From a phage, in the sequence record PX853108.1: 64,000 nucleotides of DNA. One strand, given 5' to 3'. The notes under the pieces were generated by a model. It made no database searches. It saw only the letters and a list, made by a program, of their open reading frames with translations, and was not told the DNA's origin. Positions 2,881-63,761 of this stretch are shown here, one piece after another. The translations under genes and the position numbers were made by a program. Every line of letters starts with the position of its first letter. The first letter of the stretch is position 1.

Positions 2881-3570
2881 ATGAGTGAACTAACTAAGCA
2901 GCAGATTATTAATGCCTTACCTGCTAACTTCAAAAACAGTGTGACCCAGGAGTTGGTAGACACAATCAACAACATAACCCAAGACCAACTGGTTGCTGAG
3001 TCCTTCCGTGAAAACTTTATCTCCTACTCTGGTGTAATGAAGGAAGGTAAGTTTAAGACACAGGACTACATGAATGCAGTTCAGTATGTGACTTACAAAC
3101 ACATGGGTTACTCAAATAAGGAAGCCTACTTCAAGACATTCCCTAACCGACAAGCAGAACTTGTTGCACGAGGAACCAGTGAGAAAGACATTAGTGCTTA
3201 TGTATCCGCTTACCACAGAGGTAAGCTAGTTAACCTCATCATGGAACAAAGTTTGGTTCCAGTGTGGATTGTGAACCAGGACAACTATCAGAAGGCAATC
3301 AACGTTCAGGTTGAACTGATGACTACAGCAGCAAGTGAAAAAGTAAGATGTGATGCAGCTAACTCTATCCTTACTCACTTAGCTAAACCGAAAGACCAGG
3401 TAACGAATATCAATCTGGACTTGAGAGAGAACTCTGGATTAACTGACCTCAAGGCAACACTTGCTGCATTAGCTGAACAGCAAATTAACGCAATCAATAG
3501 TGGTGTACCTACCAAAGAGGTTGCTGGTTCTAAACTAGTACGTGCAGATGAGGACATTACAGATGTCTGA
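2881..3570 (+). CDS. Putative terminase small subunit / packaging protein
   Basis: 229 aa ORF immediately upstream of and overlapping the terminase large subunit (ATGTCTGA overlap); first gene of the plus-strand late block. Call rests on position only. Confidence 0.3.
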   Translation: MSELTKQQIINALPANFKNSVTQELVDTINNITQDQLVAESFRENFISYSGVMKEGKFKTQDYMNAVQYVTYKHMGYSNKEAYFKTFPNRQAELVARGTSEKDISAYVSAYHRGKLVNLIMEQSLVPVWIVNQDNYQKAINVQVELMTTAASEKVRCDAANSILTHLAKPKDQVTNINLDLRENSGLTDLKATLAALAEQQINAINSGVPTKEVAGSKLVRADEDITDV

Positions 3571-24410: not shown

Positions 24411-24472
24411 TAACTGGCTTACTGTAGAGTAAGTTACCTATATACGATATAAGTTTGAATAGGAAACATGCT

Positions 24473-33400: not shown

Positions 33401-35227
33401 ACTTCTTACCTGGTTGGTCAGCGTAAAGATGAAATGGCTAAAGCTAAGTCTGATAGTCGTGCAACCCTGAACCAGTACAAAGGGTATATTCCTGGTGAGA
33501 ACAAACAGGGTGTTAACCTGATTGTTGCTGAAGATAGTCAGTTTGCTGATTTGATTGAGAAATCCTATGTACGACTGGGTACTTATCAGGGTAGCTCTGC
33601 TAATCGTGGTCCAGCACGTAGTTACTACTTTGCACCGGTACAGGCACAGGCTCCATTCTCACAAGGTATCCTACAGAACGTTCGCAATACTGCTGGTGGC
33701 GTAGACCTTGGCACAGGCTTTACGATGGGAACCATGGTAGCTGGTCGTATTACTGACAAGCCTTCTGTAGACCGTATCACTAAAGCACTGGCTCGTGGTG
33801 AACGCGGTAATGAACCACTGCTGCCTGTATATGATGCCAATGGTAATGTGGTTGCTTACGAGCAATCCATTGACCCTAACATGCTGAAGCACATCGAAGG
33901 TGAGAACCATCTTGCTCGTGCAATTGGTGTATGGCGTGGTCGTCAGGTGGAAGAAGCTAAGGCTCAGCGTTTCAACGATATGCTGATTGAGAACCTGCAT
34001 AGCATGTACGAGAACGACATTAAGATGTCTGCTTCTAATAAGTCCCAGTACGTTAACCTTCTTGGTTCGAAACTGGACCCAGTAACTGCCGATGCTCTTA
34101 AACTGATGAACAGTGAAACTCGTCAGAAAGCAGAAAGTCTGTTTGGACCGGGTGAGTTGTGGGTACGTCGTGACATGCTCAACGATGCACTGGGTTATCG
34201 TGCAGCTTCTGTTGGTGATGCCTGGTCTGGTAATTCTCGTTGGTCCCCAGAAACACTAGATACCTTCAAGAAAGCTATGCTGGGTGTCTTTGGAAACCGT
34301 GCTTATAAGTACGTAATGGGTGGTGAGAATCTGGTTCAAAACTTAGTTAAAGAAGCCAAGACTCTGATTGTAGTTAAGTCAGTAGTCGTACCTGCTGTTA
34401 ACTTCCTGGCTAACCTTTACCAGATGGTTGCTCGTGGTGTACCTGTTAAGAACATTGCTAAGAGCATCCCACAGAAAACTGCTGAGATTAATCAGTATCT
34501 GAAATCTCGCCTGCGTCAGGTAGATGCAGAAGCAGAATTACGTGCAGCTACTAACCCTAACCAGATTCGTAAGCTGAAGGCTGAGATTCAGTCCATCACG
34601 GATAGCCATAAGCGTTTGAGTATCTGGCCTCTGTTAGAAGCTGGTGAGTTTTCTTCAATTGCAGATGCTGGTATTGGACGTGATGACATCCTGATTACTG
34701 AAGGTAAACTTCACGAATACATGGAAAAGCTGGCTGATAAGTTGCCTAAGTCTGTACGTAATGCTGGTCGTTATGCACTTATCACTAAGGATACTGCTCT
34801 CTTCCAGGGTATCCAGAAGACGGTTGAGTACTCTGACTTTATTGCTAAAGCAATCATCTATGATGAACTGACTCAGCGTAAAGGTAAGACCCGAGAAGAA
34901 GCACTCGGACGTGTAACGGAAGAGTTCATTAACTATGACCGTTTGCCTGGCCGTTTCCGTGGGTATATGGAAAGTGTTGGTCTGATGTGGTTCTACAACT
35001 TTAAGATTCGTTCTGCAAAAGTTGCAGTGTCCATGATTCGTAACAACCCAGTACATGCTGCTATGGCTATGTTGGCTCCAACTCCTACCATGTTTGGTAA
35101 CGTTGGTCTGCCTATTAAGGACAACATCTTTAGTATTGCTGCACAGGGCAACCTCGGTTACTCCTTCGGATTCGGTATGGGCTTACGTGCCCATACCCTG
35201 AACCCGTGGCTCAACCTCACTAACTAA
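24473..35227 (+). CDS. Virion-encapsidated RNA polymerase (N4 gp50-like giant vRNAP)
   Basis: ORF 24455-35227 begins at TTG; first ATG with RBS AGGAAA is 24473 (~3,584 aa). Central region has T7-like motif A (ADGVTNG, nt ~29423), motif B (RGIAKNPLTITIYG, nt ~29762) and motif C (IFDGMNIG, nt ~30611). Confidence 0.85.
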   Translation: MSTFDRLAGFADSITNAKQVDVSTATSRKQAAQGQSPFQLTPDNAYNLQTGRVGNLGIGAYEPGSLQADFTQASPLEIINKYGNEQGLQILNSRANAADAVRQDLSKQRTNAEAFGDILSGVGLGVANTLGGIAALGTGLVNDNAGASIASGLDWLNKGVHNLQSDALNARRNVVQNQNVISAQENEKLYKQDIAKGESELVASLSRIGRDAYDSVANTLSNGMAATDGIAEGVGSLFTGGPLIRGVSALGKVMVGGDKAVKGITLAAELGSRPARIAQSAGRVAAPAIAIGGMEAGGAYQQTANEIMEMPFSELAAKSPVYQQHIKDGLSPEEARRQTASETGITAAGLTAPVAALTGPLVSKFELNPLKVGSLAGAGSNMLRETVEEGIQSGTSQFAQNTAIKENVDASRDILKGVGEQTGLGALYGFGSAGVAQAPGATVKAAGAAVGPAVRTTLAGASLAGKALAKVASPITNILVQRGEEVAKRNEQASPVSDATVNAAAQEATAQAEQAQATVQEAVDAMDISPEEKAAATQYAADLTQVMKFDPVELEQASPTVREAVSGSTNRVEAIQKMADLVNTAEDPNVQMEAAIQMYDNIMSMDSFINRDPGALANLEQGSPAANIVDQFSGLMANVQNTPKVLRAFRAIHSMIQEQAEAGKLKATEEANQAQANNIAMAADMSPEVLDADSVNMVLKHASEGKITLGNRQRAALQSAAALLQGAREFDAKAEELGLRPQDIVSKQIKTDESRSNEGQYSALQHAKRIRSAYNSGNFDLASAYLDDFMKFAQHMQNKVGALNEHLISGNADKNKSVHYQALTPSREWVRSRTGLGVNPYDTKSVKFAQQVGLEAKTVADIANALATAYPELNVSHVKVTPLDSRLDKPAAQVVKEFRQGNLDAAQSQQTNEPVNQVDESPVTKQEPVTPTVQTKPSVSEAVKTEPTIKESKPQTAKEPENQSEKQDAVEQPTESERDAYVKENTISQETLNKYGDRRESPWLFADGTVVGSNGDHISLSDVFGHDGYRDMSLDTGAVRSTFYKGSEQPFVSLQLFDNQKLTAEQFNTVQSFVEANNALIQIGVDTSGLNTNNVEKEEVSLAQLKADYTVGGKPLSQMETVFPVYNNEKTSNQFLKAFSLPEEPKSRTIGSESPLTDVKKALSSAARFEAFTQKENNALTSDVIKRYQDLFDFGETLKTTLSDRLAKFLANKNVGKRFAEGTEANRWVGGKLLNIVEKDGDTFKFNDQLLETAVLAGLQWRLTATQNAAVKDMKDVAAITGVEASLLPEGILAEFENAQTLVEATNSLAQKIESYWGLNRNADAPLGYTKGIPMAMATEILSSLIEMGEVKESMLDVSEIDPESNKTVGLYTIEKLDDNDAINKFPTAIEEAVLLEPVEKLYLGDDIPSVAQTQLRNPAVKNTPEQKAALKAEQATEFRVHMPMVNFYEALGRDNILELMGAGALNPELLNVNTAKSLEGKNLSVSMAYDSLFGVINQIKEQENGLDTPIHYGYNMTRVGRMQMLGKNNPQSSKLVREAILPTFSTIDLSNENSQTFSDFQLGLAQALGIKVHKMSREVMSDELTKALEGKLKPAVDMMVEFDKSGHLPTDAVDILKTSLGNDKSFVALMALMEYARYLNSDDRANFNTPLYVEADGVTNGPINAMVLMTGGKFTPDWIKNTAKGGLFFGKAGKTMNEHHSHEDSVDLYEASTNGLQQALNELRSTYRNNVPVMNQMNHLQKLMDLFIKDFNLKEDGTLDLKRGIAKNPLTITIYGSGARGIAGKMVSAITDTIYERFSDVLQARAADPSISPAMAMFGKEAASEADAQAMLDTFLTSMEALTGNVPVMRKGELSIQQVEGALTGKLDPQKFTVSGNALKNLQENMLHLFVEPMRTGIRNTVGEGLMYSTENLQKATQIQSLVLQDMFQQAVQAKLAEKEKDPTWKKGDFLTQKELNEIQNSLAPLAPMIETGSQTFYIAGSENTDVANQVLATNLDDRMRVPMSIYAPSQAGVAGIPFMTIGTGDGMMMQTLSTMKGAPKNTLKIFDGMNIGINDITDASRKANEAVYTSWQGNPIKNVYDSFAKFMKNVDFSKLSDETKQAIAKSALEYDQREGATDDLLRVGAEQIERNLRNIALGVDIRHKVMDQVQVTVDQMAAVGAPYVNNGKISLEGLTVDQQVAKLNELFDAELNKRRDAVRAAKAEPVKEVPAMEKVGRVLKSGVRLLSNTAITKLAKEMSPEQQAVLKEIQKSLAAKDYKVVYGTPAQLDAYAIEKNITRPAPEDIEAAEAGNAYGWTNFEDKTIYLVTPSLETLVHELVHATTFESVLAHYEGTPNEAVQNIEDLMNQFLTLDVKDESPAVREAYADALNTINGHLSNGFIEPAMAKAAALNEYMAWGLTNRELISKQKKTTALKTMVQAVYEAIKRLVFGRKKAPANADDMFSGLLFNSAVVMRGQAPTAAVAKDTTLFHNKAYGDNTRLEELGKTFDKLITDYIGSEPVQQVIRKGKFSDAVVNATKVTRDVQAHGFTMNMQEQRLFTNIVAALATEAAINPAALARAQEYYTHVTKNLTVEAFMADPDSTNPADRYYAQQKFDTIMGANNIEFDAQGRSSLLPTFVGLAMVSEEVRKVLADIPVMKADKKSGNTVDAMLTNIGTAAMASLNARVAGDTKATNVQEGMDALAQTIMQTSLNAESFYDSVATPTGNAIDRANQYLVDSIDVLSTRALEGAREVAANTKNPLVKGAAHAAQLVAAIATEKNGAIVAEGVMAAMNQGKVWQPFHDLVNDIIGRTKSNASVYDLIKAVRAQVQADRQQFREHLPTTIASKFSRKLTNDEWKAMHTGMGKTDLAVLRDTMSLDEIRDLLSDQKIVDREVNKLEADLQKQAGRNWPLISRKSKQLAQYMINGTVGNNLLRNATAISRLLGERKTTRSVVDVAQLDKLITLYALEAMNKTDREMLSSLAQTEIEGMDFATSYLVGQRKDEMAKAKSDSRATLNQYKGYIPGENKQGVNLIVAEDSQFADLIEKSYVRLGTYQGSSANRGPARSYYFAPVQAQAPFSQGILQNVRNTAGGVDLGTGFTMGTMVAGRITDKPSVDRITKALARGERGNEPLLPVYDANGNVVAYEQSIDPNMLKHIEGENHLARAIGVWRGRQVEEAKAQRFNDMLIENLHSMYENDIKMSASNKSQYVNLLGSKLDPVTADALKLMNSETRQKAESLFGPGELWVRRDMLNDALGYRAASVGDAWSGNSRWSPETLDTFKKAMLGVFGNRAYKYVMGGENLVQNLVKEAKTLIVVKSVVVPAVNFLANLYQMVARGVPVKNIAKSIPQKTAEINQYLKSRLRQVDAEAELRAATNPNQIRKLKAEIQSITDSHKRLSIWPLLEAGEFSSIADAGIGRDDILITEGKLHEYMEKLADKLPKSVRNAGRYALITKDTALFQGIQKTVEYSDFIAKAIIYDELTQRKGKTREEALGRVTEEFINYDRLPGRFRGYMESVGLMWFYNFKIRSAKVAVSMIRNNPVHAAMAMLAPTPTMFGNVGLPIKDNIFSIAAQGNLGYSFGFGMGLRAHTLNPWLNLTN

Positions 35228-36497: not shown

Positions 36498-36754
36498 TAG
36501 TAGCTTTAACGCAGCTAACGAGGCTTGTATGAGTGCTAGGATTTGTAACTCCCAGCATATCCCCACCGTTTTAGCTGACGGCAAACAGAGATTGATAGTC
36601 TCAGAGGATACTTTACTCAGGCGAGTATTATAGTCTACTCATACTCACACTACCCTAACGGGTAGTATGTTTGCAATACCTAGAGTGCCGGACTGTCTCA
36701 CCGGCATTGTCTTTAGAGTGCAATGCAATCAGGACTATGTTCTCTATTAATGAG

Positions 36755-36828
36755 TACCCACTACTGGATTTGAACCAGTGACCTTCCGATTATTAGTCGG
36801 TTGCTTTCCCCGTCTAAGCTAAGTGGGC
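36755..36828 (-). tRNA. tRNA, hand-folded anticodon AAT (Ile?); no encoded CCA
   Basis: Minus-strand sequence GCCCACT-TA-GCTT-AGACGGGGA-AAGC-A-ACCGA-CTAATAA-TCGGA-AGGTC-ACTGG-TTCAAAT-CCAGT-AGTGGGT-A: 7-bp acceptor (G1-U72), D arm, T arm with TTCAAAT loop, 7-nt anticodon loop with U33 and A37. A34 is unusual. Confidence 0.7.
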
Positions 36829-36833
36829 ATAAA

Positions 36834-36909
36834 TGGTTACCCGGACAGGATTCGAACCTGTGTCCTAGTTGGTTTACTAGTGGGGCTTTACCACTAAGCC
36901 TACCGGGTA
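36834..36909 (-). tRNA. tRNA-like gene with encoded CCA but non-canonical anticodon arm
   Basis: Minus-strand TACCCGG-TA-GGCT-TAGTGGTAA-AGCC ... ACAGG-TTCGAAT-CCTGT-CCGGGTA-A-CCA: perfect acceptor, D and T arms; the anticodon region CCACTAGTAAACCAACTAGG folds only as a 5-bp stem with 6-nt loop or 4-bp stem with 8-nt loop. Confidence 0.6.
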
Positions 36910-50741: not shown

Positions 50742-52790
50742 TTACTTAGCAGCTTTGACCAGATTGGTAGCTAATTTAGCTTCTTCTTCAGTCAGACCCA
50801 TTGCAGTGAATGACTTCTTAGCATGACGCTTATAGTCTTGCAGAGCATGGCCTTTCTGATAGTCGGAGTACGTCGTATCGTTCAGGATGCTACGCAGATT
50901 ATCAGCATGTTTACCAGACGGAGCTACTTTAGTGGCAGCAGCAGAACGCGTAGGTTTAACTGTCTTATCCTGCTTAACAGCTTTAGGTGCAGGAATGCGA
51001 GTACTACGGATAGTAGCAATAGCGTCTACTACATCGCTACCTACATCGAATGCACCCCAGGGCTTACGAGCTTTACCACGCAGTTCTACCAGAAGGTCAG
51101 CAGCAGCTAACTTATCTTCTGGGGTTGTTGCATTGAGGAACTCTTTGACCAGTTCCTGGATTTGTTCTTTCACAGTAGGAGCCTTCTTATTAACTGGTTT
51201 AAGGTCGGTAGCTTTCACTGGTTCAGCAGCTACAGCTTCATTCAGTGACTCTTCCATGTTCAGTGCTTCTTTACTAGCAACTGTACGGAATTGTTCTACA
51301 GAACCAGATGTGAGATTAGTGTATTTGAGGTTAGTACCACGATGACCACCAACCATAATAAGTGTGGTGGGTGAACTATGGTTCCCAACAATGGCATCAT
51401 TAAGTAACTTCTTACCTACTTCTGTTTTAGACAGGTAGATACCATTGTTAACGTTATTACGTTCCTCTTCAGGCAGTTCAGCAATAATATGATACGCAGA
51501 TACACGCATCTTATTGGTGCTGTACTCAGGAACAGCAAATACATCTTCTGGTGCTACTTTACCAAGGATTGTTACGTTACCACCGAAGCTACGGATATAG
51601 CTCATGGATGCTACGTGCAGACCGTTAGAGCAGTCCTGACGACGGTCAGGGTCTACCAGGTCTTCACGTACCTGCACTTTACAGCCTACCCACTGACGGA
51701 TGTTACCTGAGTGACAGTCAACGAATACACGTTTACCATCTTCTGTTCCTTTATACTGAAGGCGTTTCAGAAACAGGATAGAACCATCATCAGCAATAGG
51801 TAGCTCAGCAGTCTCCATGAATTTCATCAGGTCTTCTACTGAGTGCAGGCGGTCTTTAATAACCGGAGCCAGACGCTCAAGGAACTTAGTAAAGCCCTTG
51901 TAGTCTTTCAGCTTGGCTGACTGACGTAAGTGTCGATGCAGGTTTTCAACTCCAGGGATAACCCCATTGTTGGTAACAGCAACAACCACTTCATCTTCCT
52001 TCACTTCAGTGTGGAAGTTAGCATCATCAGTACTAATAGCACCCAATGCAGCTAACTTCTCAGAAGCAGCAGCCAGCTTGTCCTGGTTCGCAGTTTTAGC
52101 TACTTCAATGTAAGGTGGTGGGGTATGTTTACGGCTGGTGAATACAATGTGTACTCCTTTGATGTGTTTGGCTTGTTTGGCAAACTCGCTCATTTCATCA
52201 TCAGATACTGCACGAATTGCAATAGGCCATTCCTGTGCAAGGGTACGGTTGGTATGGTCATAACCATAACGCAGTACGTCATTGATAAAACGAACCAGTG
52301 CAGGATGGTTATGGTCCTTATCCCAGCCAGTAACCCACATCAGGTTATCACGTCTGTCATAACAACCATCTGTTACAGTTACTTCTGGTTCATTAGCCTG
52401 TACAGCCAGGAAGGTATCTATAGCTTTAGACACCAGTGTCTTAGTAGGATTGCCCAGCTTAATATCTGAGACGATACGTGCAGGTGGAATACCTGTACCA
52501 TCCTGGAAGAACTCTTTCAGTTTAGCTTTGGCTACCTTGAAGAAACGGACAAATCCGTTAGTGTTCTTCTCTGCTTCCAGATACTCAGTACGCAGGCTTA
52601 CTTCTGGTGCAATGTTTACTTCTATCAAGTCTTTGGTAGTTCCCAGACCTTTGGTTTGTGCTTCAGATACAATGCGAGCAACCCGTGGGTCGCTCTGTGG
52701 GTATACAATTGTGGAGCCATCAGGCTTCCACAGTGTGAGGTTACGACTGTCAACTGCCAGTGCGATGATAGAAATCAGTTCGATTTTCAT
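50742..52790 (-). CDS. rIIB: rIIB-like protein
   Basis: 682 aa ORF immediately downstream of the rIIA-like gene; assignment by size and synteny. Confidence 0.45.
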   Translation of the reverse strand: MKIELISIIALAVDSRNLTLWKPDGSTIVYPQSDPRVARIVSEAQTKGLGTTKDLIEVNIAPEVSLRTEYLEAEKNTNGFVRFFKVAKAKLKEFFQDGTGIPPARIVSDIKLGNPTKTLVSKAIDTFLAVQANEPEVTVTDGCYDRRDNLMWVTGWDKDHNHPALVRFINDVLRYGYDHTNRTLAQEWPIAIRAVSDDEMSEFAKQAKHIKGVHIVFTSRKHTPPPYIEVAKTANQDKLAAASEKLAALGAISTDDANFHTEVKEDEVVVAVTNNGVIPGVENLHRHLRQSAKLKDYKGFTKFLERLAPVIKDRLHSVEDLMKFMETAELPIADDGSILFLKRLQYKGTEDGKRVFVDCHSGNIRQWVGCKVQVREDLVDPDRRQDCSNGLHVASMSYIRSFGGNVTILGKVAPEDVFAVPEYSTNKMRVSAYHIIAELPEEERNNVNNGIYLSKTEVGKKLLNDAIVGNHSSPTTLIMVGGHRGTNLKYTNLTSGSVEQFRTVASKEALNMEESLNEAVAAEPVKATDLKPVNKKAPTVKEQIQELVKEFLNATTPEDKLAAADLLVELRGKARKPWGAFDVGSDVVDAIATIRSTRIPAPKAVKQDKTVKPTRSAAATKVAPSGKHADNLRSILNDTTYSDYQKGHALQDYKRHAKKSFTAMGLTEEEAKLATNLVKAAK

Positions 52791-52794
52791 CAGA

Positions 52795-55362
52795 TTAGTT
52801 ACCTTTCAGTTTATTTAGACGATTACGGTAGAGGGACTTAAACCCAGGAATATCCTCTGGATTCTTCTTGAGGTGTTTTACCAAACTACCTAAGTCCAGC
52901 GTCTGTAGGATGTCATTTTTATTCCAGCTGTAGCTGAATAAACCTTTGTAACCATTAAGTATTTCAAAGTACTTATGGTTACGTGGATTAGTCATCACTA
53001 TATATGGCTCTAGGTCATCTACTGATTTAATACAATCCATTTCAACAAGTTTTTCTTTGTTGTTATGTGGTCGATTTCGTAAAAAGTCATATGCCCATTC
53101 ATATTCTGGTTTAAAAATCAGATTCTGTAATGGTTTGAAGGTTAAACCTAGTATGTCGAGGATTTCCCAGTATTCTCTGTCGTCCAATCCTACATATTCC
53201 AGAATACCAATACGGTGTTCAGTAACATATTTCTTGAAGCCTTTACTGGTAATAACTGACATCAATTTACTGTAGCGAACATCATCAATGTGGATAGCAC
53301 CACGCCGTTTGGCCTTGTTAGCCTCGATTTGATTGCGACAGACAACTGTCTCTGCTTTCATCTCATCGGATAACTCATACCATTTCCACATGGTTCCAAT
53401 TCGAGCAGTTACAGGACTACCAGAACTAATCTGATTAGCCAGTACATAGTACTTAGGCTGTTCTATCTCAACGAAACCATACTTCTCATGGAAGCTAGGA
53501 TCAGTAAAATCCTTGTCAATGTACGGTTTAGAATCCCAATCCCCACTTTTATTCCGTACAGGGGTAGTGCCGAGAACTGCATTCAATGAAATCAGAGCAT
53601 TAGTTTTACCTCCTGCTTTGGTTTTATTAGCAGCTATTGTCTTAGCTCGCTTCTCAGCAGCTAACTTAGCCTGTTCCCTGCGGTAGTTAGTCGGTTTGTC
53701 CCACTCATTATATTGAGTAAGGTCAATTACCCGATAACCCATAGCAGTGAACTTAGCTACAGCTTCCTCTGCTGCACCCTTCTTAGGACCAACAACGTGA
53801 ACAAAAGCTGTACGCTCCAGATCACCTCGGTTGTACTCAGGGAAGTATGAGAAAGAGTCTGCACAATCAGATAAACGTCGGGTAACTACAACGTTTTTGG
53901 TAGTGAATATGCCAATACTTTGGTGGGAGTTATTGTATATCCTAAAGTAGTCAGTAAGTTTACCTTTTACCAAGTCAACACGGTTACCTTGATTCATTAT
54001 GTAACCATACCACTTAATACCAGAGGTTTTCAAAGCAGCCAGCTGAGGTAAGTGCAGATGGCGATATACTAATTCCGAGAATGGGGAGTATGTACTTTCT
54101 TCACGAGTATCCTTAAGAGCACGCATAGCCTTACCATATAGTTTCTTAAGACCTGCATACTCAGGACGAGCTAATAATGCCTTATTGGATAAATTACGCC
54201 AGTGCTTGATGCGATGCTTACGTTGCTTAGCCCATAAACTAGAGGACATATAACGTTGAACAATAGGGTCTGTAACAGCAAGTAGGAAAGAAGGATATTC
54301 CCAGAAGCGAGTAGAGGATTTAGAGGCGTATTCTTCAACTTGCTTAATAGCTTCAGGAATCTTAGCCTTAATCTCTTTCTCCATACGGTCTACTAAATCT
54401 ATACACAGAGTAGTAATACCATCGTCGGTTAACTTCTGATTGGACAGCGTTTCTCGACTAGGAGCAATAGCTAGAGTATCCGGTGCAGCCTGAACTACTA
54501 AATTAGATGCTCCAATAATATTCATGAAGTTGAGAATAAGACCTACTGCCTCTTCACTAGCAGGGCTGGATACAATTGGGTACATTACGTTACCGTAACG
54601 AACGAAAATGTTACTGTTACCCATATAACCCTTATACCATCTATCAGACATATCATATGAACCAGGTTCAAATGACATACCCAGCGTATCCAGCAGAGTG
54701 TAGTCGCCTTGCTGAATGTTAATGCCTTCTTCTGTTTTAACGAGTTTAGTGGTACTTAGCTCAGCTTTAATCTCACCGTTAAACACGATTGATCTGATGT
54801 AATGCACGAAGGTATTTACGTCATGCTTACCTAACTGGAACTTAACTTCCAGACCAGATTCCTCAGTGGGAATATTGGTAACAATGGGGACAATACCAGG
54901 CTTACCATCATTCTCAATCGCAGCCTTAGCTACGTTGTATACAGACATCTTCCCTTGGTTCCATGAAGTAACCTGGAAGCTATCTGTATAAGCGAATGGG
55001 GATTTACATCCCAGACCAAAGCCACCAGTAACACTACTGTTGGCTTTCTTAGTAGATGCACCATAGACACCATAAATGGAGCCAATGAGTTCATCCGGGA
55101 TTCCGTTACCGTAGTCACGGAAGGTAATAAAGTTGTCTTTATCAATGGTAATACGAATAGGGGTATCAGTCTTACCTGCTTCAATATGAGCATCCCAACT
55201 GTTACAGATAGTCTCACGAACTACTGCCAAAGTAGGATTGTTATACAAGGAAGTACTTAATACATGGAAGAATGCCGGGTCATCAGAGATGCCAAAGGCA
55301 ATTGTTTCTTTGCCACCCAGTGTCGCTGAGGTAGCTACTTCATTGGTATCTGCAACTAACAT
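52795..55362 (-). CDS. rIIA: rIIA-like protein with N-terminal GHKL (histidine-kinase-type) ATPase domain
   Basis: 855 aa; N-box-like ETICNSWDA, G1-box RDYGNGIP, G2-box GGFGLGCKS within the first ~120 aa, as in T4 rIIA. Confidence 0.65.
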   Translation of the reverse strand: MLVADTNEVATSATLGGKETIAFGISDDPAFFHVLSTSLYNNPTLAVVRETICNSWDAHIEAGKTDTPIRITIDKDNFITFRDYGNGIPDELIGSIYGVYGASTKKANSSVTGGFGLGCKSPFAYTDSFQVTSWNQGKMSVYNVAKAAIENDGKPGIVPIVTNIPTEESGLEVKFQLGKHDVNTFVHYIRSIVFNGEIKAELSTTKLVKTEEGINIQQGDYTLLDTLGMSFEPGSYDMSDRWYKGYMGNSNIFVRYGNVMYPIVSSPASEEAVGLILNFMNIIGASNLVVQAAPDTLAIAPSRETLSNQKLTDDGITTLCIDLVDRMEKEIKAKIPEAIKQVEEYASKSSTRFWEYPSFLLAVTDPIVQRYMSSSLWAKQRKHRIKHWRNLSNKALLARPEYAGLKKLYGKAMRALKDTREESTYSPFSELVYRHLHLPQLAALKTSGIKWYGYIMNQGNRVDLVKGKLTDYFRIYNNSHQSIGIFTTKNVVVTRRLSDCADSFSYFPEYNRGDLERTAFVHVVGPKKGAAEEAVAKFTAMGYRVIDLTQYNEWDKPTNYRREQAKLAAEKRAKTIAANKTKAGGKTNALISLNAVLGTTPVRNKSGDWDSKPYIDKDFTDPSFHEKYGFVEIEQPKYYVLANQISSGSPVTARIGTMWKWYELSDEMKAETVVCRNQIEANKAKRRGAIHIDDVRYSKLMSVITSKGFKKYVTEHRIGILEYVGLDDREYWEILDILGLTFKPLQNLIFKPEYEWAYDFLRNRPHNNKEKLVEMDCIKSVDDLEPYIVMTNPRNHKYFEILNGYKGLFSYSWNKNDILQTLDLGSLVKHLKKNPEDIPGFKSLYRNRLNKLKGN

Positions 55363-55405
55363 TTATTTACTCTCCAGATTAAATGTTGCTTCTTGGTTAT
55401 GACTA

Positions 55406-55600
55406 TTAAGAATCTAATGCTGATTTACAGGCTTCAAAGATTACTTTACGTAATTCCCGTTCTTTTTCCGGTTCCTCATGGGGACTGTAACCAAAAGGAC
55501 TGTTTTGCATAAAACCAGCCAGAATTAGTAAATCTTCTTCAGATAGACCATCAATAGTTATGGAGTATTGGTTTTTGCTTTTTACTGTAGCGTTAGCCAT
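55406..55600 (-). CDS. Hypothetical small protein
   Basis: ORF 55406-55630 trimmed to ATG 55600 (GGAG at 8 nt). Confidence 0.35.
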   Translation of the reverse strand: MANATVKSKNQYSITIDGLSEEDLLILAGFMQNSPFGYSPHEEPEKERELRKVIFEACKSALDS

Positions 55601-55909
55601 TTCGTTTCTCCGCCATTGCTTGTAATACAAATACTACAGTGTCTGAAATTTGGTCATCAGTTGGTTCAACTAATTGACCGTTCTCGTCATACATTTCTTT
55701 CAGAAGTGCATTTAGTTCAGCCATACCAGCCAGTATCATTTCTTTACTTGGTTCCAGCCATAATTTTCGTTCCTCTGCTAGTGCAGCGATGCACATACAT
55801 AGAGAGGCAATGTTAGCTGGGCAAGCAGCAATATCACCAGTTACTGCAATCTCACTAAGTGGGACAGCTTTACCGGTTTTACTATGAATAACTTCAGGAT
55901 TAATCATGG
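55593..55909 (-). CDS. Hypothetical protein
   Basis: ORF 55593-55955 trimmed to ATG 55909, which overlaps the upstream stop (ATGA) and has GGAG at 8 nt. Confidence 0.4.
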
Positions 55910-56112
55910 ATTTGCTCCAGGTTATGGGCAGGAATAGGGAAGCATGGATAGTCACCTGTAGGGTCCAGTGTTACTGACACATGCAGTGTATTGGTCATTT
56001 GGGTTAGCATTTGAGCAGCATTGAAATCATCCTGAATACAGGCATATACAATGTCACCTTTCTCACCTTCACACATTACTGGTGTGTCTTTGATGCGGTA
56101 TTTAGCAGGCAT
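55900..56112 (-). CDS. Hypothetical small protein
   Basis: 70 aa ORF; gene-dense minus-strand context. Confidence 0.35.
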   Translation of the reverse strand: MPAKYRIKDTPVMCEGEKGDIVYACIQDDFNAAQMLTQMTNTLHVSVTLDPTGDYPCFPIPAHNLEQIHD

Positions 56113-56121
56113 ATCATTTCC

Positions 56122-56346
56122 TTATTTTTTAATAACAATGGGATTTCTGTAATTCCAGGCTCTATTAAGCTTTTCCAGCCTAAATCCTGCATATCCTGAT
56201 TCTTTAGACAGGATTTCTTCCGCAGTATCTATTGCATTAATTTTGCATAAACGCCCATCTATACAGATGTTTTTAAAACTGCCCGTAGATTCTCTGTATA
56301 TTCCATTGGAGTCTTTCTCCAACATAGTTGCATACCAACTTGCCAT
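56122..56346 (-). CDS. Hypothetical small protein
   Basis: ORF 56122-56376 trimmed to ATG 56346 (AGGAGG upstream); the longer form would start inside the A-tract of a terminator. Confidence 0.35.
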   Translation of the reverse strand: MASWYATMLEKDSNGIYRESTGSFKNICIDGRLCKINAIDTAEEILSKESGYAGFRLEKLNRAWNYRNPIVIKK

Positions 56347-56373
56347 AAGTCCTCCTGGGACAGTAATTGAAAC

Positions 56374-56401
56374 CAAAAAAAGACCTCCCGGAGGAGGTCT
56401 T
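56374..56401 (-). terminator. Intrinsic terminator (minus strand)
   Basis: Stem AGACCTCC/GGAGGTCT with CGGA loop; minus strand reads hairpin then TTTTTTT; 5 nt after the stop of gene 56406-56642. Confidence 0.6.
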
Positions 56402-56405
56402 AGGT

Positions 56406-56642
56406 TTACTTACTATTCTCTTCAATGAAGCGTCTCATACGTTTCTTTGCTTCATCATGTTCCTTAATGGCTACATAGTCTCGTGCATAATAATATACAC
56501 ACCATAGGCCAAGAACACATGCAGAGAAGCGAGCCACCACGAAGAACATCTCTTCTAGGCTCTGAGCATTATGTAATGAAAATACAAATTCCAGAACCAG
56601 GATGATACTTACAATCATTGCTTGAATAGCTAAGCGTTTCAT
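56406..56642 (-). CDS. Small membrane protein (2 predicted TM segments)
   Basis: 78 aa; two hydrophobic segments and a basic C-terminus. Confidence 0.4.
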   Translation of the reverse strand: MKRLAIQAMIVSIILVLEFVFSLHNAQSLEEMFFVVARFSACVLGLWCVYYYARDYVAIKEHDEAKKRMRRFIEENSK

Positions 56643-57583
56643 TCAGTAATAGTCTCACCAGGGATTAATTTACGGAACTGGATAAAGTGGAGTAGGTTGC
56701 CTGAGTACAGATTCCCCTCTTTATCCATGGAAGTAACACCTTGTTCCCATGTAACTGGGTTCATGTTATTCACGTACTTCTCACTAAGGTTCATGGGCGT
56801 AGCTTGATGTTCCGTTGGGGAAGCATGAATAGGTTGGTTTTCAACTAATTTAGCAAATAAACTAAGGTCTTCTTCAATAGTAGATGGACGTCCTTCAAAG
56901 TTGTTATAGGAAGCACGAGCACAGCGTGCAGCACTTACTTTGAGAAGTAGTCCATGCACTTCTGCATCACTTGGTTCATCACGTGTAATTCGATTACGTT
57001 TGCAGAAATTGTAAGCCCCAACACGATCAATATGAGCAATATATGGCAGATGCCATTGCCCATATGGTAATGCCCTTGGCGTACTTTCTTCATGTGCCTT
57101 ACGCATTGCTTGAGCCAGTTCACGAATCTCTGGTTGTGCATCTTTGTGGTCACGCAATCCATAGAAATTAGCCCAGCTAGTTGAAGTTACCACTACACGG
57201 ATATGAGTGAAGGGTTCCAGAATACGGTTAACAATCTGCTTATGCACTTGCCCACGACGCAGCATTTCTGCATAGGTAGCAACACTAGATGCAGCCTGTT
57301 CCCAGATAAAAATTGCATCACTGCGTTGGTCTTCAGATAGCTCTTCAAATGCCTGCATACCTTTCTGGTTCTTACCCCAGTGACTAGGCATCACTGGTTC
57401 ATTACGAACCTGTTCGATGAACTTAGAAGTAGGGATAGCACGACTGCTTGAAGCGTTACGGTTAAATACACGGTGGGTCATAAATTCACTGTGAATGAAT
57501 CGGGGATAAACCAATTCAAAGGTTGTGATACGAGTTCCTGTTTCTGGATGAACGGAATCTGCAATAACTGATGCCTTAATCAT
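56639..57583 (-). CDS. thyX: Flavin-dependent thymidylate synthase (ThyX-like)
   Basis: 314 aa; FMTHRVFNRNASSSR fits the ThyX signature (R/T)HR-x7-S-x-R. Confidence 0.5.
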   Translation of the reverse strand: MIKASVIADSVHPETGTRITTFELVYPRFIHSEFMTHRVFNRNASSSRAIPTSKFIEQVRNEPVMPSHWGKNQKGMQAFEELSEDQRSDAIFIWEQAASSVATYAEMLRRGQVHKQIVNRILEPFTHIRVVVTSTSWANFYGLRDHKDAQPEIRELAQAMRKAHEESTPRALPYGQWHLPYIAHIDRVGAYNFCKRNRITRDEPSDAEVHGLLLKVSAARCARASYNNFEGRPSTIEEDLSLFAKLVENQPIHASPTEHQATPMNLSEKYVNNMNPVTWEQGVTSMDKEGNLYSGNLLHFIQFRKLIPGETITE

Positions 57584-58026
57584 TAGAATGACCTTAGATA
57601 GTTGGTGATACCACTTCTCGTCTCTGTGATTCTCTTAACCTGAACGTATACCAGCTTAAACTCACTACGAGGTAGTTCTTGTAATACTGCCACACCTTCA
57701 GTAAGGGCCACAGAACACGCTACAGCGGTTTCTTCTTTAAAGGAGTACAAGTCTTCATACATGAGGGCTTCATACTCTTTACGGAGCATACAGAGAGCAT
57801 CTCTTGCTTTATCACTTACTTCTTGTGAACCAGCAGACATAGCTAAGCTGTATATGATAAAGACTTGTTCAAAAACAAAGTCCAGTAATTTATCAGGGTT
57901 GCTAGTACCCATAAATAATTTTGTTGTGTAGGAACGAGCTTTACTGTTGAGTTCATACTCATCCTCTATGCCTTTATTGTAAAGAACAGGATTTCGTTCC
58001 CTTTTTCTTAGGAATGGGATACGCAT
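57583..58026 (-). CDS. Hypothetical protein
   Basis: 147 aa ORF; stop overlaps the thyX-like start. Confidence 0.45.
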   Translation of the reverse strand: MRIPFLRKRERNPVLYNKGIEDEYELNSKARSYTTKLFMGTSNPDKLLDFVFEQVFIIYSLAMSAGSQEVSDKARDALCMLRKEYEALMYEDLYSFKEETAVACSVALTEGVAVLQELPRSEFKLVYVQVKRITETRSGITNYLRSF

Positions 58027-58406
58027 TAGTATTTACTACCTCTTCTATACCAGGGGTAGTGGTGAGTAGTGCTTTTACTTTTGAACACATCCTTAGTACG
58101 GGGGTTCTTTTGTATTTGAGCCAGATAAAGTTGTGTATCGTCTTTACACGGGTTAAGCCAGAACTTATCTATGATTCGGTCTACCTTAGATTTCAGATGA
58201 GGTTCTGGGGGAATGTATGAAGGAAATGATCTGCTAGTGGCCCATTTTTTCTGAATAAGAACCTGCATTGTTGCATAAATATCTGCTTCAATTTCATTAT
58301 CCACCCGGTCATGGATAGCTTTACCCAAAGCAAGCATTGCAGTTTGTTCCAGCTTACCGAAGTCCATCCCTTGAAAGATAGACTTACCATTTTGTCTGTT
58401 TGACAT
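58026..58406 (-). CDS. Hypothetical protein
   Basis: 126 aa ORF, preceded by a terminator hairpin. Confidence 0.45.
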   Translation of the reverse strand: MSNRQNGKSIFQGMDFGKLEQTAMLALGKAIHDRVDNEIEADIYATMQVLIQKKWATSRSFPSYIPPEPHLKSKVDRIIDKFWLNPCKDDTQLYLAQIQKNPRTKDVFKSKSTTHHYPWYRRGSKY

Positions 58407-58422
58407 AAGAGTACCTGTAATT

Positions 58423-58448
58423 AAAAAAGCCCACGGGTTAGGTGGGCT
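58423..58448 (-). terminator. Intrinsic terminator (minus strand)
   Basis: Stem AGCCCAC/GTGGGCT with 7-nt loop; minus strand then reads TTTTTT. Confidence 0.55.
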
Positions 58449-58523
58449 TGGGTTAGGAGATGGATAAGCAATGAGCTGGAAGTAACTTCCACAAGCACCA
58501 CTATGTAATGATGCTTAGATTAG

Positions 58524-58766
58524 TTACTCTGCTTTACTGCCACCATTGGTTTGAACAACAGTTACATTTGTAACCTGGTTCTGACCTTTGTTGGACAGTG
58601 ACCAAATCAGTGCTACTACCCAGAATACTAGTGACCAGCCTAATACGATATTAAGCACACCAATACCCCACTTAGAGGCATGGCCTCGTGAAAAAGCAAT
58701 GATAGTAGGGATAAGGTATACAGCTAATACAAATAACAGAACAAGGATTGCTGCTAAAGATTCCAT
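58524..58766 (-). CDS. Superinfection-immunity-like (Imm family) small membrane protein
   Basis: ORF 58524-58802 (GTG) trimmed to ATG 58766 (AGGAA at 5 nt); PTIIAFSRGHASKWGIGVLNIVLGWSLVFWVVALIWSLS matches my recollection of the Imm superinfection-immunity family pattern. Confidence 0.5.
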   Translation of the reverse strand: MESLAAILVLLFVLAVYLIPTIIAFSRGHASKWGIGVLNIVLGWSLVFWVVALIWSLSNKGQNQVTNVTVVQTNGGSKAE

Positions 58767-58839
58767 GATGGTTCCTATGTGGGGTTGAGTTAGTTTCTTC
58801 ACAAATAGCCCAGCATAGTTGGGCTATTTAGGCAGTTAC

Positions 58840-59049
58840 TTACTCAGCATCTTTGCTTGCAGGAGCAAGAGCTTTCTTCAGGTAATTACGTACTGAACGA
58901 TAGGTTTCTTTGGTTTCTATATAGTTATTATCTACAAATATGACGCGTGCATGGTCAGACTGTGGAATCTGTTCTACTGCAATTACATTTGCAGCATTAA
59001 TGGTTAAGCGTACATCTGAGGTTGCATGAGTTACTTGAAATACTGACAT
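58840..59049 (-). CDS. Hypothetical small protein
   Basis: 69 aa ORF between the dCTP-deaminase-like gene and a hairpin at 58804-58828. Confidence 0.35.
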   Translation of the reverse strand: MSVFQVTHATSDVRLTINAANVIAVEQIPQSDHARVIFVDNNYIETKETYRSVRNYLKKALAPASKDAE

Positions 59050-59058
59050 GAGTTTTCC

Positions 59059-59565
59059 TTATTTACTGCTTCTTGCAGCTACTGGTTTGTTTTCCTGGTT
59101 CTGATACTTGCCATTGTAATTAGCAGGTTCCTGAACCAGATGAAATAATACTTGAGCTATCCCAGAACCAGCCGGGATATGCAATTTCTTGCGACCATGA
59201 TAGACCAGTTCAAGAGTCAGATACCCTTTCCATCCTGGTTCTATTACGGTATTGAACACAGATAATGCACGTCTTGCCCATGTAGACTTATCGTGAACGA
59301 TAGCTACACAGGACGGGGACATGTTGAACTTCTCAATTGCTGAAGCTAATGTGAATTTACCGAAATGTCGTGATACTTGATTTCCATCAACAACCTTCAC
59401 CATTGGAATCAACCCAAATAAGCGATAAAAGGTAATATCTTGTTTGATACGAATATCATAACCAGCTTCACCTAATCCATAGCTTACACCATGCTCTGAT
59501 ATCTTATGGTCTGGGACATCCAGCAACTGAGATGAACGATAAAGAGAATTACCATTAACAACCAT
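59059..59565 (-). CDS. dcd: dCTP deaminase / dUTPase-fold protein
   Basis: 168 aa; VIEPGWKGYLTLELVYHG resembles the Dcd/dUTPase beta-barrel motif (D/E-P-G-F/W-x-G ... LE). Confidence 0.45.
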   Translation of the reverse strand: MVVNGNSLYRSSQLLDVPDHKISEHGVSYGLGEAGYDIRIKQDITFYRLFGLIPMVKVVDGNQVSRHFGKFTLASAIEKFNMSPSCVAIVHDKSTWARRALSVFNTVIEPGWKGYLTLELVYHGRKKLHIPAGSGIAQVLFHLVQEPANYNGKYQNQENKPVAARSSK

Positions 59566-60770
59566 TATTTCATTCCTTTAGGGATATGAACTACCTCCCC
59601 AAAAGGTACGGTAGCATTAGGATTATTCAGAACACACCAGATGATAGGAATATCAAATGGCAGTTCTTCCATTGGATGAACATACATATCGGAGAATATG
59701 ATTGCAGCGGTTGGCTTATTCTTAATAATCCACTCGCGTACTGGTTCCAGGTTTGTACCACCACGACCGGTAATCTTAATCTCTTCAAAAGTATCTTCTT
59801 CAGTGATGTCCATCTCTTCTTGAATAATATCGTCGAAGGTAATTAGGGACATCTTCTTAGGATTGAACTGGCTCTTAACGTAGGCAACCTCTGAGTTAAA
59901 ACGCAGAGAATCAGCACTACTAATAGAACCAGATACATCCTCAAAGTAGGCTAGGTGTCGCAGACGTCCTTCGTCATCTTCCAGCGAAGGTAGATAGATG
60001 TCAGTGTAACGACGGTTAGGTCTGGCCCACGTATAGTGTGTATCATCAATGTCGGTAAAGAAGTTCATCAGAACTTCTTGCCATGGAACCACTGGTTTAA
60101 GGAATTGGGTAATGACCTCTTCCATACGACCAGCACCTTTACCGGGCATCTGTCCACCAGCCATCTTCTGGCTCTGCATTGCACGTACTACGTTGTTGAC
60201 GACAGCACCCTGGGACTGCCCCGAAGAGGGGGATTTCATGTCGCCAGCAAGACCTGCTCCAGCACCCCCTGACGGCTTCTGCCTTTTCTGAGGGTTCTTC
60301 ATCAGGTCATCGTAGATGTCTTCTTCGACCCATCCTTTATATTGAGGATCTTTGCAAATGCCTTCATTAATACCAGTGAACTTGTAACCATCCTCTTCTA
60401 ACTGAAGGTTAATGAAGTGGTCACATGCCTGGTTCCAGACTTCTGGGTCACGGCTTCCACGACGAATGTCATGTAGATATGCTACATGCCATAGTTCATG
60501 CATAAGCACCGTTTCTCTTGCATCTGGACACATCCAGATAAAGAAGTCTGGGTTGAAATGGAGTTCTATCCCATCAGTACATGCAGTGGGACAATTCTCA
60601 CGTTTCCATGAGAACTTAAGACTACACAGTAATGAACCAAAGAACGCAGCAGACTTGCCTAGGAAAGCCTGAGCCTGAATACGGTCATACTCACGCATGA
60701 GTTGTTCATCACTAAGTGTGTGCTGAGGAAATTGGTTCATTATTTTATCCGTGAATGTAACGAGAGACAT
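59565..60770 (-). CDS. VWA-domain protein with N-terminal HExxH metallopeptidase-like motif (MoxR partner)
   Basis: 401 aa; HELWH near the N-terminus; MIDAS-like DVSGSIS in the C-terminal half; overlaps the upstream AAA ATPase gene. Confidence 0.6.
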   Translation of the reverse strand: MSLVTFTDKIMNQFPQHTLSDEQLMREYDRIQAQAFLGKSAAFFGSLLCSLKFSWKRENCPTACTDGIELHFNPDFFIWMCPDARETVLMHELWHVAYLHDIRRGSRDPEVWNQACDHFINLQLEEDGYKFTGINEGICKDPQYKGWVEEDIYDDLMKNPQKRQKPSGGAGAGLAGDMKSPSSGQSQGAVVNNVVRAMQSQKMAGGQMPGKGAGRMEEVITQFLKPVVPWQEVLMNFFTDIDDTHYTWARPNRRYTDIYLPSLEDDEGRLRHLAYFEDVSGSISSADSLRFNSEVAYVKSQFNPKKMSLITFDDIIQEEMDITEEDTFEEIKITGRGGTNLEPVREWIIKNKPTAAIIFSDMYVHPMEELPFDIPIIWCVLNNPNATVPFGEVVHIPKGMK

Positions 60771-61831: not shown

Positions 61832-62161
61832 TTAAGATTTGGTGCAGGGATATGCCTTATGTACTGAGTACACAATAATTTGGGATGTATTCTTCAATTT
61901 AAGGATTGCAGAGTCATAAATAACTACTTTGGCAATCTTAGGCAAAATGACTGAGTATTTGATACCTTCTGGAACACAGTTATCTGTGCTCTCTATGTAA
62001 GAGATCATACTGCCCATGAAGAACCCTTGCCCGAACGCATCACGGGTGTCGTCCAGGTAAGCCTGAGCACCTTCCAGAATTGGTTCTGGTTCAATTGCTT
62101 GTGCATTTGGGGCCAAAGCTATCAGTGCAGCTACTGCAACACCTTTAAGTAAAGTTTTCAT
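61832..62161 (-). CDS. Secreted/periplasmic protein (signal peptide)
   Basis: 109 aa; N-terminal MKTLLKGVAVAALIALAPNAQA looks like a Sec signal peptide with an AQA cleavage site. Confidence 0.45.
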   Translation of the reverse strand: MKTLLKGVAVAALIALAPNAQAIEPEPILEGAQAYLDDTRDAFGQGFFMGSMISYIESTDNCVPEGIKYSVILPKIAKVVIYDSAILKLKNTSQIIVYSVHKAYPCTKS

Positions 62162-62347
62162 TTAGTTACCTTTCATTTCATTGAGTTGAAGTACACCGAT
62201 AGGGGTTAATGACCACCCAAGACCAGCATTGAACTGTACTAAGCCCAGCTTCTTAAGAGACTGTGCGGTTTTGTTATTACGGTTGCTGGTGGCAGAGCCA
62301 CCTTGAACCATACGAAGGAAGATTGCCTGGGACTGGGTAAGTTTCAT
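62162..62347 (-). CDS. Hypothetical small protein
   Basis: 61 aa ORF, tightly packed with neighbours. Confidence 0.3.
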   Translation of the reverse strand: MKLTQSQAIFLRMVQGGSATSNRNNKTAQSLKKLGLVQFNAGLGWSLTPIGVLQLNEMKGN

Positions 62348-62532
62348 TTCTTCTCCGGTATGAACTGCATTACACAGTTTTGATTACGAGGGATATTAAG
62401 TTCACATTCATGCTTGAGGGTTTGAGTTACGGAGTTTGGAGTAGAACCAAAGTAGGTATTAGAAATAGCTACAAATCCTGCACCTATTAAACCACCCAGC
62501 AAGAATGAGAAGAATGCAATTTCTTTATACAT
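62344..62532 (-). CDS. Small membrane protein
   Basis: 62 aa; hydrophobic N-terminus FFSFLLGGLIGAGFVAI; preceded by a terminator. Confidence 0.35.
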   Translation of the reverse strand: MYKEIAFFSFLLGGLIGAGFVAISNTYFGSTPNSVTQTLKHECELNIPRNQNCVMQFIPEKK

Positions 62533-63545: not shown

Positions 63546-63761
63546 TTAGTTGTTTACACAGTAGATAGCAAAAGCTATCCATCCTGCCATTACAAAGCAA
63601 CCAAGTGAGTATGCTCCATAATAGTAGCAAGCAAACTTAGACTTGTGGGCATGAACTATTGTAGACAGAGCCAGTACAGATAAAACTATCAGTATTAGCT
63701 GAAAGATTACTTCAAAAGGGATTAGCATAGTTGTTACCTCCAAGCAAAAAATAAGCCTCAC
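63546..63761 (-). CDS. Small membrane protein
   Basis: 71 aa with two hydrophobic segments; start uncertain. Confidence 0.3.
   Translation of the reverse strand: MRLIFCLEVTTMLIPFEVIFQLILIVLSVLALSTIVHAHKSKFACYYYGAYSLGCFVMAGWIAFAIYCVNN

Follow-up and report, generated by a model that had tools for sequence, protein, structure and literature searches.

Superinfection exclusion, by which an infected cell resists secondary infection, is conferred in phage T4 by Imm together with Spackle (PMC7677548). T4 Imm is apparently a protein of the plasma membrane (PMC6832632), and the RefSeq note on imm in the T4 record (NC_000866) describes superinfecting phage DNA as being left in the periplasm. For phage N4, no superinfection exclusion system has been characterised according to a 2025 preprint on its lysis (PMC12642591). 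Among the G7C-like relatives of N4 imm is already known, as it carries the annotation 'immunity to superinfection' in G7C and in dozens of related phages, and one genome paper lists a gene for a 'superinfection exclusion protein' in the G7C-like phage ST4 (PMC9404725). Here, we analysed the interval 55406-58766 of a phage DNA stretch of 64,000 nucleotides (sequence record PX853108.1; the whole stretch is hereafter called the window), which holds imm and eight further genes. The locus is best explained as the imm-bearing pre-replicative block of a G7C-like phage of the N4 family, in which a T4-Imm-like block to phage entry appears rather probable by analogy with T4.

The Imm protein and its relatives

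The original prediction for this interval had named an Imm-family-like superinfection-immunity gene and had proposed a profile search as the challenge to that similarity. In this search the 80-amino-acid protein encoded at the upstream end of the interval matched PF14373 (Imm_superinfect) over profile positions 1-42 of 42 with 61.9 bits (E=5e-17, cut-off 27.9), so the similarity strongly holds; T4 Imm, taken from NC_000866, scored 58.2 bits in the same scan. The family assignment was borne out further by PHROG 1039, 'immunity to superinfection' (E=7e-30), and by BLASTP against T4 Imm itself, which aligned 61 amino acids at 30% identity (E=4e-10). In a MAFFT alignment the two proteins are co-linear from a shared ME(S/T)L N-terminus, through the motifs P..IA..RG and W-S..-W....IWS, to a short polar tail. 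Two hydrophobic segments were detected in the window protein at residues 7-25 (maximum 2.91) and 35-53 (maximum 2.26) by Kyte-Doolittle hydropathy with a 19-residue window, and the ratio of non-synonymous to synonymous substitution (dN/dS) of the gene was 0.05-0.3. Judged by its sequence and two-helix architecture, the window protein is a true member of the family founded by T4 Imm.

The likeness to T4 Imm thus extends from the profile scores to the lengths of the proteins (80 and 83 amino acids), their two-helix hydrophobic layout and their shared motifs, and both proteins are encoded among the pre-replicative genes of a virulent coliphage. The two differ in that their overall identity is only 30%, that the window genome is that of an N4-type podovirus whereas T4 is a T-even myovirus, and that imm of the window forms a discrete cassette in an intergenic spacer. 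A sequence search of the PDB with Imm returned no meaningful match. Imm of T4 also adjoins a gene of the thymidylate synthase family, namely gene 42 for deoxycytidine monophosphate hydroxymethylase (3480-4625 of the T4 stretch), and this echo of the imm, dcd and thyX neighbourhood in the window is probably a coincidence.

Outside its own phage group, the closest Imm proteins were those of Acinetobacter phages of about 44 kb (63% identity over a 41-residue core), followed by T4-like Klebsiella and Salmonella phages (about 54%) and then by Salmonella phages of ~42 kb (48%). Imm-family genes are thus carried by very different virulent phages, among them T4-like myoviruses and the ~44-kb Acinetobacter and ~42-kb Salmonella phages, a spread more in keeping with a general inner-membrane block than with one specific to T4.

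To place the source phage, positions 55300-58900 were compared with 50,697 phage records by megablast. Matches were found in 59 records, 47 of which covered at least 80% of the query, and with the sole exception of one Klebsiella-labelled record all were Gamaleyavirus phages of Escherichia and Shigella. The matches have DNA identities of 84-94%, and the source phage, at 91-94% identity to sequenced phages, belongs to this genus of G7C-like relatives of N4 (Schitoviridae, Enquatrovirinae), which are podoviruses. Its Imm corresponds to gp27.1 of G7C, and the Gamaleyavirus orthologues share 85-99% amino acid identity, the position between gp27 and gp28, the flanking hairpins and the terminator. 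The only difference among these orthologues lies in the C-terminal tail, the 80-amino-acid form of the window being found in SP5M, IME11, pSb-1 and UE-M6, and a form of 86 amino acids in G7C, ZQ2, Bas96 and Mimir124.

An inserted cassette in a block of three predicted transcription units

The interval consists of nine genes on the minus strand, equivalent to G7C gp27.1 to gp32.1 and lying just upstream of rIIA and rIIB, and its edges coincide exactly with the gp32.1 stop codon and the imm ATG (Table 1). All the genes between 50.7 and 64 kb of the window are on the minus strand and converge on the plus-strand gene for the virion RNA polymerase (24455-35227). The gene order is common to the annotated relatives ZQ2, SP5M, G7C, IME11, ECBP1, Bp4, pSb-1, UE-M6, Bas96 and Mimir124. 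The interval is the gp27.1-gp32.1 part of the pre-replicative ('middle') block in the standard layout of the genus, which is already annotated. Start codons were picked from ribosome-binding sites, stop/start overlaps and the annotation of the relatives.

Table 1. Genes and RNA structure elements of the imm block and its flanks, with positions in the window
Feature	Position	Strand	Description	Evidence
Imm, equivalent of G7C gp27.1	58524..58766	-	80 amino acids, two hydrophobic helices	PF14373, PHROG 1039, T4 Imm BLASTP
gp28-like basic soluble protein	58026..58406	-	126 amino acids	PHROG 12812
gp29-like protein, helical bundle	57583..58026	-	147 amino acids; start/stop codons overlap gp28 and thyX	
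ThyX (flavin-dependent thymidylate synthase), equivalent of N4 gp30	56639..57583	-	314 amino acids	PF02511, PHROG 85
gp30.1-like protein with two transmembrane helices	56406..56642	-	78 amino acids	hydropathy, PHROG 12633
gp30.2-like soluble protein	56122..56346	-	74 amino acids	PHROG 8099
gp31-like acidic soluble protein	55900..56112	-	70 amino acids	PHROG 7900
gp32-like acidic protein	55593..55907	-	104 amino acids	PHROG 9004
gp32.1-like acidic soluble protein	55406..55600	-	64 amino acids	PHROG 7471
gp27, upstream of imm	58840..59049	-		
dCTP deaminase (dcd), upstream of gp27	59059..59565	-		PF22769
rIIA, downstream	52795..55362	-		near-identical relatives' annotation; GHKL ATPase domain
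rIIB, downstream	50742..52790	-		near-identical relatives' annotation
Hairpin after gp27, upstream of imm	58803..58829	-	10-11 bp stem, 7-nucleotide loop, no clean T-run	
Extra hairpin just 3' of the imm stop codon	58492..58517	-	11-bp stem; belongs to the imm cassette	fold
Short hairpin of the ancestral spacer	58478..58490	-	GGAAG-TTA-CTTCC; similar elements in Jgk1 and N4	fold
Intrinsic terminator T1, 3' of imm	58421..58449 (scan hit 58449..58427)	-	8-bp stem, 5 G-C pairs, T6	
Intrinsic terminator T2, 3' of gp30.1	56373..56401 (scan hit 56401..56380)	-	9-bp stem, 5 G-C pairs, CCGG loop, T7	

Imm is present in most Gamaleyavirus genomes and absent in N4 and in phage Jgk1, and the spacer that holds it was compared with those of the two phages without it. 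The gp26-gp34 region of N4 has the same gene order as the window, with deoxycytidine triphosphate (dCTP) deaminase, gp27, gp28, gp29, ThyX (gp30), gp31, gp32, rIIA and rIIB and with terminators at the same positions after gp27 and gp30, but it is without Imm, gp30.1, gp30.2 and gp32.1; Jgk1 is without Imm and carries gp30.1. In both phages the gp27-gp28 spacer is made up of a hairpin, a short hairpin of the GGAAnTTCC type, the motif CCATTGCTTA and a terminator. The spacer of the window holds all of these elements plus an insert of ~310 bp, which lies between the first hairpin and the short hairpin and comprises a ribosome-binding site, the imm open reading frame (ORF) and a hairpin of 11 bp. 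The first hairpin is an ancestral element flanking the cassette on its upstream side, being annotated as a stem_loop in G7C and having counterparts in N4 and Jgk1, and the short hairpin was found also in Jgk1 (GGAAGTTCCTTCC). The 11-bp hairpin does not occur in the spacers of Jgk1 and N4, which are without imm; three of its pairs are kept by double changes in IME11, which as a single lineage gives weak support. This comparison of spacers shows imm to be a self-contained cassette that entered an older spacer of hairpins and terminator, and both N4 and Jgk1 keep that spacer intact and unoccupied.

The cassette resembles a phage moron, as it consists of one ORF that brings along a ribosome-binding site and a 3' hairpin and is located between conserved genes, with empty sites kept in relatives, and its PHROG category is 'moron, auxiliary metabolic gene and host takeover'. 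It differs from morons in that no promoter of its own was identified, and it apparently relies on read-through transcription out of the upstream unit and on the terminator that was already there. A distant-DNA search for the donor of the cassette matched only 55 Gamaleyavirus/Moovirus records, and no second copy of the cassette or of its hairpins was found in the window.

Eight terminator-like sites were returned by the scan for terminators, where 3.1±1.6 were expected, and the strongest two (T1 and T2) are on the coding strand. Both are G+C-rich stem-loops followed by a T-run and located 3' of a stop codon, as expected of intrinsic terminators, and folding was much more stable than in shuffled sequences for the imm-gp28 spacer (z=-4.4) as well as for T2 (z=-3.9). 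They lie at the same positions in 12 of the 12 relatives examined and in N4, and the annotation of SP5M marks both as terminators. The stem of T1 is invariant in 10 relatives and near-identical in N4 (GCCCAC...GTGGGC), and T2 is kept in all relatives with a varying loop and has a stem of different sequence in N4 (GCCTCC...GGAGGC).

From the positions of T1 and T2 the block reads as three co-directional units. The first runs through dcd, gp27 and imm and is closed by T1. The second reads as a thymidylate-synthesis unit of gp28, gp29, thyX and gp30.1 closed by T2, in which the overlaps of stop and start codons (TAATG/ATGA) indicate translational coupling. The third reads as gp30.2-gp31-gp32-gp32.1-rIIA-rIIB and opens with four small, mostly acidic, soluble proteins. 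Matches to sigma-70 promoters were depleted in positions 55000-59600 (4 versus 12.8±3.2 in shuffled sequences), as would be expected if a phage RNA polymerase, and not the host enzyme, transcribes the block. The middle promoters of N4 RNA polymerase II are described as AT-rich (PMC4496689), and to regard the T-rich, AT-rich sequence after each terminator as such a promoter is speculation.

Proposed function of Imm

By analogy with T4, Imm of the window would be made before replication, soon after infection, and would insert in the inner membrane. There it would keep the genome of any phage that arrives later from getting across, and this entry block would protect the infection in progress. We consider this function the probable one. 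Several points weigh against it. N4-type virions inject a giant virion RNA polymerase with the genome, so their entry is very unlike that of T4. The timing of imm expression is read only from the position of the gene, which lies in the pre-replicative block of the N4 'middle' type and shares the strand of its neighbours. Our literature search found no experiment on any Imm homologue outside the T-even phages, Gamaleyavirus included. A homologue of Spackle, the partner of T4 Imm, was not seen here, and none was searched for. Relatives of the source phage may be subject to an Imm-type block, or the block may act only against phages unrelated to it. How T4 Imm works is itself poorly understood, and less well than the action of Spackle (PMC6832632).

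Alternatively, the Imm-like protein might stabilise the envelope against the damage of secondary adsorption (lysis from without) or tune the timing of lysis as a protein of the holin/antiholin type. A review of T4 lysis inhibition says that Imm reportedly resembles a holin, and a small protein with two hydrophobic helices and a polar C-terminal tail that varies between relatives would suit this role. However, a holin is expected in the lysis cassette and late, whereas Imm and gp30.1 are both encoded in the pre-replicative block beside genes of nucleotide metabolism, imm lying far from the late lysis cassette. The lysis genes of the N4 family form a separate late cassette (gp60-gp63 in N4), and G7C shows no lysis inhibition (PMC12642591). 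A role in envelope stability or lysis thus seems rather unlikely, and an entry block of the T4 Imm type is the function we prefer. As a natural single gene that is either present or absent, imm provides a tidy handle for Imm-type exclusion in N4-family phages. Its effect could show whether an Imm-type block works on podoviruses that inject a giant RNA polymerase as well, and would also inform the mechanism of T4 Imm.

Gp30.1 and the other genes of the block

The second membrane protein of the interval, gp30.1, has by hydropathy a basic N-terminus (MKR), two hydrophobic helices joined by a short loop and, after a conserved GLWCxYYxARDY motif, a charged tail at the C-terminus. Its start codon overlaps the stop codon of thyX (ATGA), and the gene lies outside the lysis cassette. 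By tblastn it was found in 55 phage records, all of Gamaleyavirus, Moovirus or Jgk1. A profile search of 5.8 billion proteins returned 249 clusters at 90% identity, only from the same phage group, and the contigs of the clusters listed were no longer than about 76 kb, with many approaching the length of a genome; an exhaustive hidden Markov model search of 1.84 billion representatives returned only six (50% identity), again of this group. In N4, thyX runs directly into the T2-bearing spacer with no gp30.1. Gp30.1 is probably an accessory envelope protein that was added at the end of an operon, as imm was.

Gp30.1 occurs as two allele classes, which share the first five residues (MKKLA), the GLWCxYYxARDY motif and the tail and look unrelated over residues 6-44, that is, helix 1, the loop and most of helix 2. 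Between the classes the synonymous divergence (dS) of more than 1.8 is saturated, at a dN/dS of about 0.15-0.2. Rapid positive selection was considered as the source of the divergence of gp30.1, gp27 and gp32.1 and was rejected, given a saturated dS (>1.8) and a dN/dS of about 0.15-0.25; the same values indicate that the variants of the three genes are old alleles exchanged by recombination. Among the relatives, the allele classes of gp30.1 assort independently of the two variants of the Imm C-terminal tail. It is tempting to view the imm cassette, perhaps with gp30.1, as the first superinfection exclusion system of the N4 family, in which Imm would block the passage of both genome and virion RNA polymerase at the inner membrane and the divergent, membrane-embedded half of gp30.1, which in both allele classes is joined to a conserved cytoplasmic tail, would set which relatives are excluded, but we hold this to be quite unlikely.

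The original prediction went further, as it described a cluster of Imm, several small proteins with two transmembrane helices and unassigned ORFs between thyX and the rII genes, separated by strong terminators, and noted that membrane-acting exclusion or anti-defence functions commonly cluster in this way. The corresponding model is one co-selected, membrane-acting module of these genes with rIIA/rIIB. Two of the terminators, T1 and T2, are real on the folding and conservation described above. Both rIIA and rIIB are immediately downstream, according to the annotation of the relatives and the GHKL ATPase domain of rIIA. The remaining geometry was different from that described. ThyX occupies a central position within the interval, with imm upstream of it and set apart from it by T1 plus two genes for soluble proteins. 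A Kyte-Doolittle scan of all the proteins encoded in 55.4-59.6 kb (the nine plus gp27 and dCTP deaminase) found two clear transmembrane helices only in Imm and gp30.1, 2 of the 9, with one marginal helix in gp32 and the others soluble. As Imm and gp30.1 are ~1.9 kb apart and each is last in a separate terminator-bounded unit, the genes do not form a cluster of membrane proteins.

Physical closeness to rIIA/rIIB speaks for such a module, as does the variability of gp27, gp28, gp30.1, gp30.2 and gp32.1, which are variable, optional or dispensable among relatives, as accessory genes often are. Gamaleyavirus phages also reportedly stand out for their resistance to restriction-modification systems (PMC11990801), and anti-defence genes must accordingly be encoded in some part of the genome. 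Against this, only two of the nine products are membrane proteins, and their genes are in separate units with those of dCTP deaminase, ThyX and soluble proteins interleaved. N4 keeps rIIA/rIIB, ThyX and both terminators yet is without both membrane-protein genes, and Jgk1 carries gp30.1 without Imm. Furthermore, Imm tails and gp30.1 alleles do not travel together, and no PADLOC model was matched. A concerted membrane module with rII is thus unlikely, and co-selection of all these genes for exclusion or anti-defence is improbable. What stands of the proposal is exclusion of the Imm type, a fair reading of imm alone.

As several of the ORFs encode only 64-78 amino acids and have no Pfam or NCBIfam match, some of them might be chance open frames between genes. 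Every one of the nine, however, matched a PHROG family almost end to end, and pairwise Nei-Gojobori comparison of every ORF with 11 relatives gave a dN/dS of 0-0.3 against close relatives with many synonymous differences. Most of them also have a plausible Shine-Dalgarno sequence or a stop/start overlap with a neighbour. With such PHROG matches and with purifying selection on every ORF (dN/dS well below 1), all nine are real genes and the chance-frame explanation is already effectively refuted.

Scans of the small ORFs against Pfam, NCBIfam and PADLOC matched only Imm and ThyX and no PADLOC defence model. ThyX matched PF02511 (51.9 bits, E=1e-13, cut-off 24.8) and PHROG 85 (E=9e-115) and is a divergent member, as its score for TIGR02170 (56.8) is under the equivalog cut-off of 87.9. 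Gp28 shows 51-83% identity among relatives, and its C-terminal 44% is conserved in N4 gp28. In G7C, gp28 is cleanly deleted, T1 being followed directly by gp29, and the gene is therefore dispensable. Gp30.2 is present in ZQ2, G7C, pSb-1 and Bas96 and absent from SP5M, IME11, ECBP1, Bp4, UE-M6, Mimir124, Moo19, Jgk1 and N4. Gp31 is 96-100% identical in amino acids within the genus and 53% identical to N4 gp31; in four relatives it is 100% identical (dN=0) despite a dS of 0.23-0.33, an unusually strong constraint for a small protein.

The marginal helix of gp32 is an Ala/Cys-rich segment of an otherwise acidic protein, with an invariant hydrophobic CPANIA-LC-CIA pattern in the alignment. Its AlphaFold2 model was of moderate quality (predicted local distance difference test 78, predicted template modelling score 0.44) and had no Foldseek match at E<1, and PDB sequence searches with gp28, gp29 and gp32 gave no meaningful match. 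For gp32.1, relatives carry an allele of 94-97% identity, an allele of 50% identity or no gene. At the gp32.1 position of Jgk1, just upstream of rIIA, a very hydrophobic ORF of 40 amino acids (MYYKLWLVNVMADIWLALLIFVSNFGALLGFAVILLALFS; 4593-4715) may encode another small membrane peptide.

Upstream of dcd, the gene at 59565-60770 (minus strand) encodes a protein of the N4 gp25 type with DUF2201_N metallopeptidase-like and DUF2201 VWA-like domains. It is labelled 'HNH endonuclease' in several RefSeq relatives, which looks like a propagated misannotation, and is split in pSb-1 and Bp4. Real HNH endonuclease inserts occur in Bas96 between dcd and gp27 (1020-1586 of its stretch) and in G7C before gp25 (1-268), and the window is without them. 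Two adjacent transfer RNA (tRNA) genes at 36754-36909 (minus strand) lie near the point where the pre-replicative genes of the minus strand meet the virion RNA polymerase gene of the plus strand. The first of them is a tRNA-Ile with the anticodon AAT, and the second, for which ARAGORN gave no anticodon, passes the Rfam tRNA threshold at 42 bits. Further small envelope-type proteins are encoded upstream of the imm block at 61832-62161, 62344-62532 and 63546-63761, all on the minus strand. This set comprises a protein of 109 amino acids with a signal-peptide-like N-terminus (MKTLLKGVAVAALIALAPNAQA; phrog_11132), a single-helix protein of 62 amino acids (phrog_7508) and a hydrophobic protein of about 60-71 amino acids (phrog_12530).

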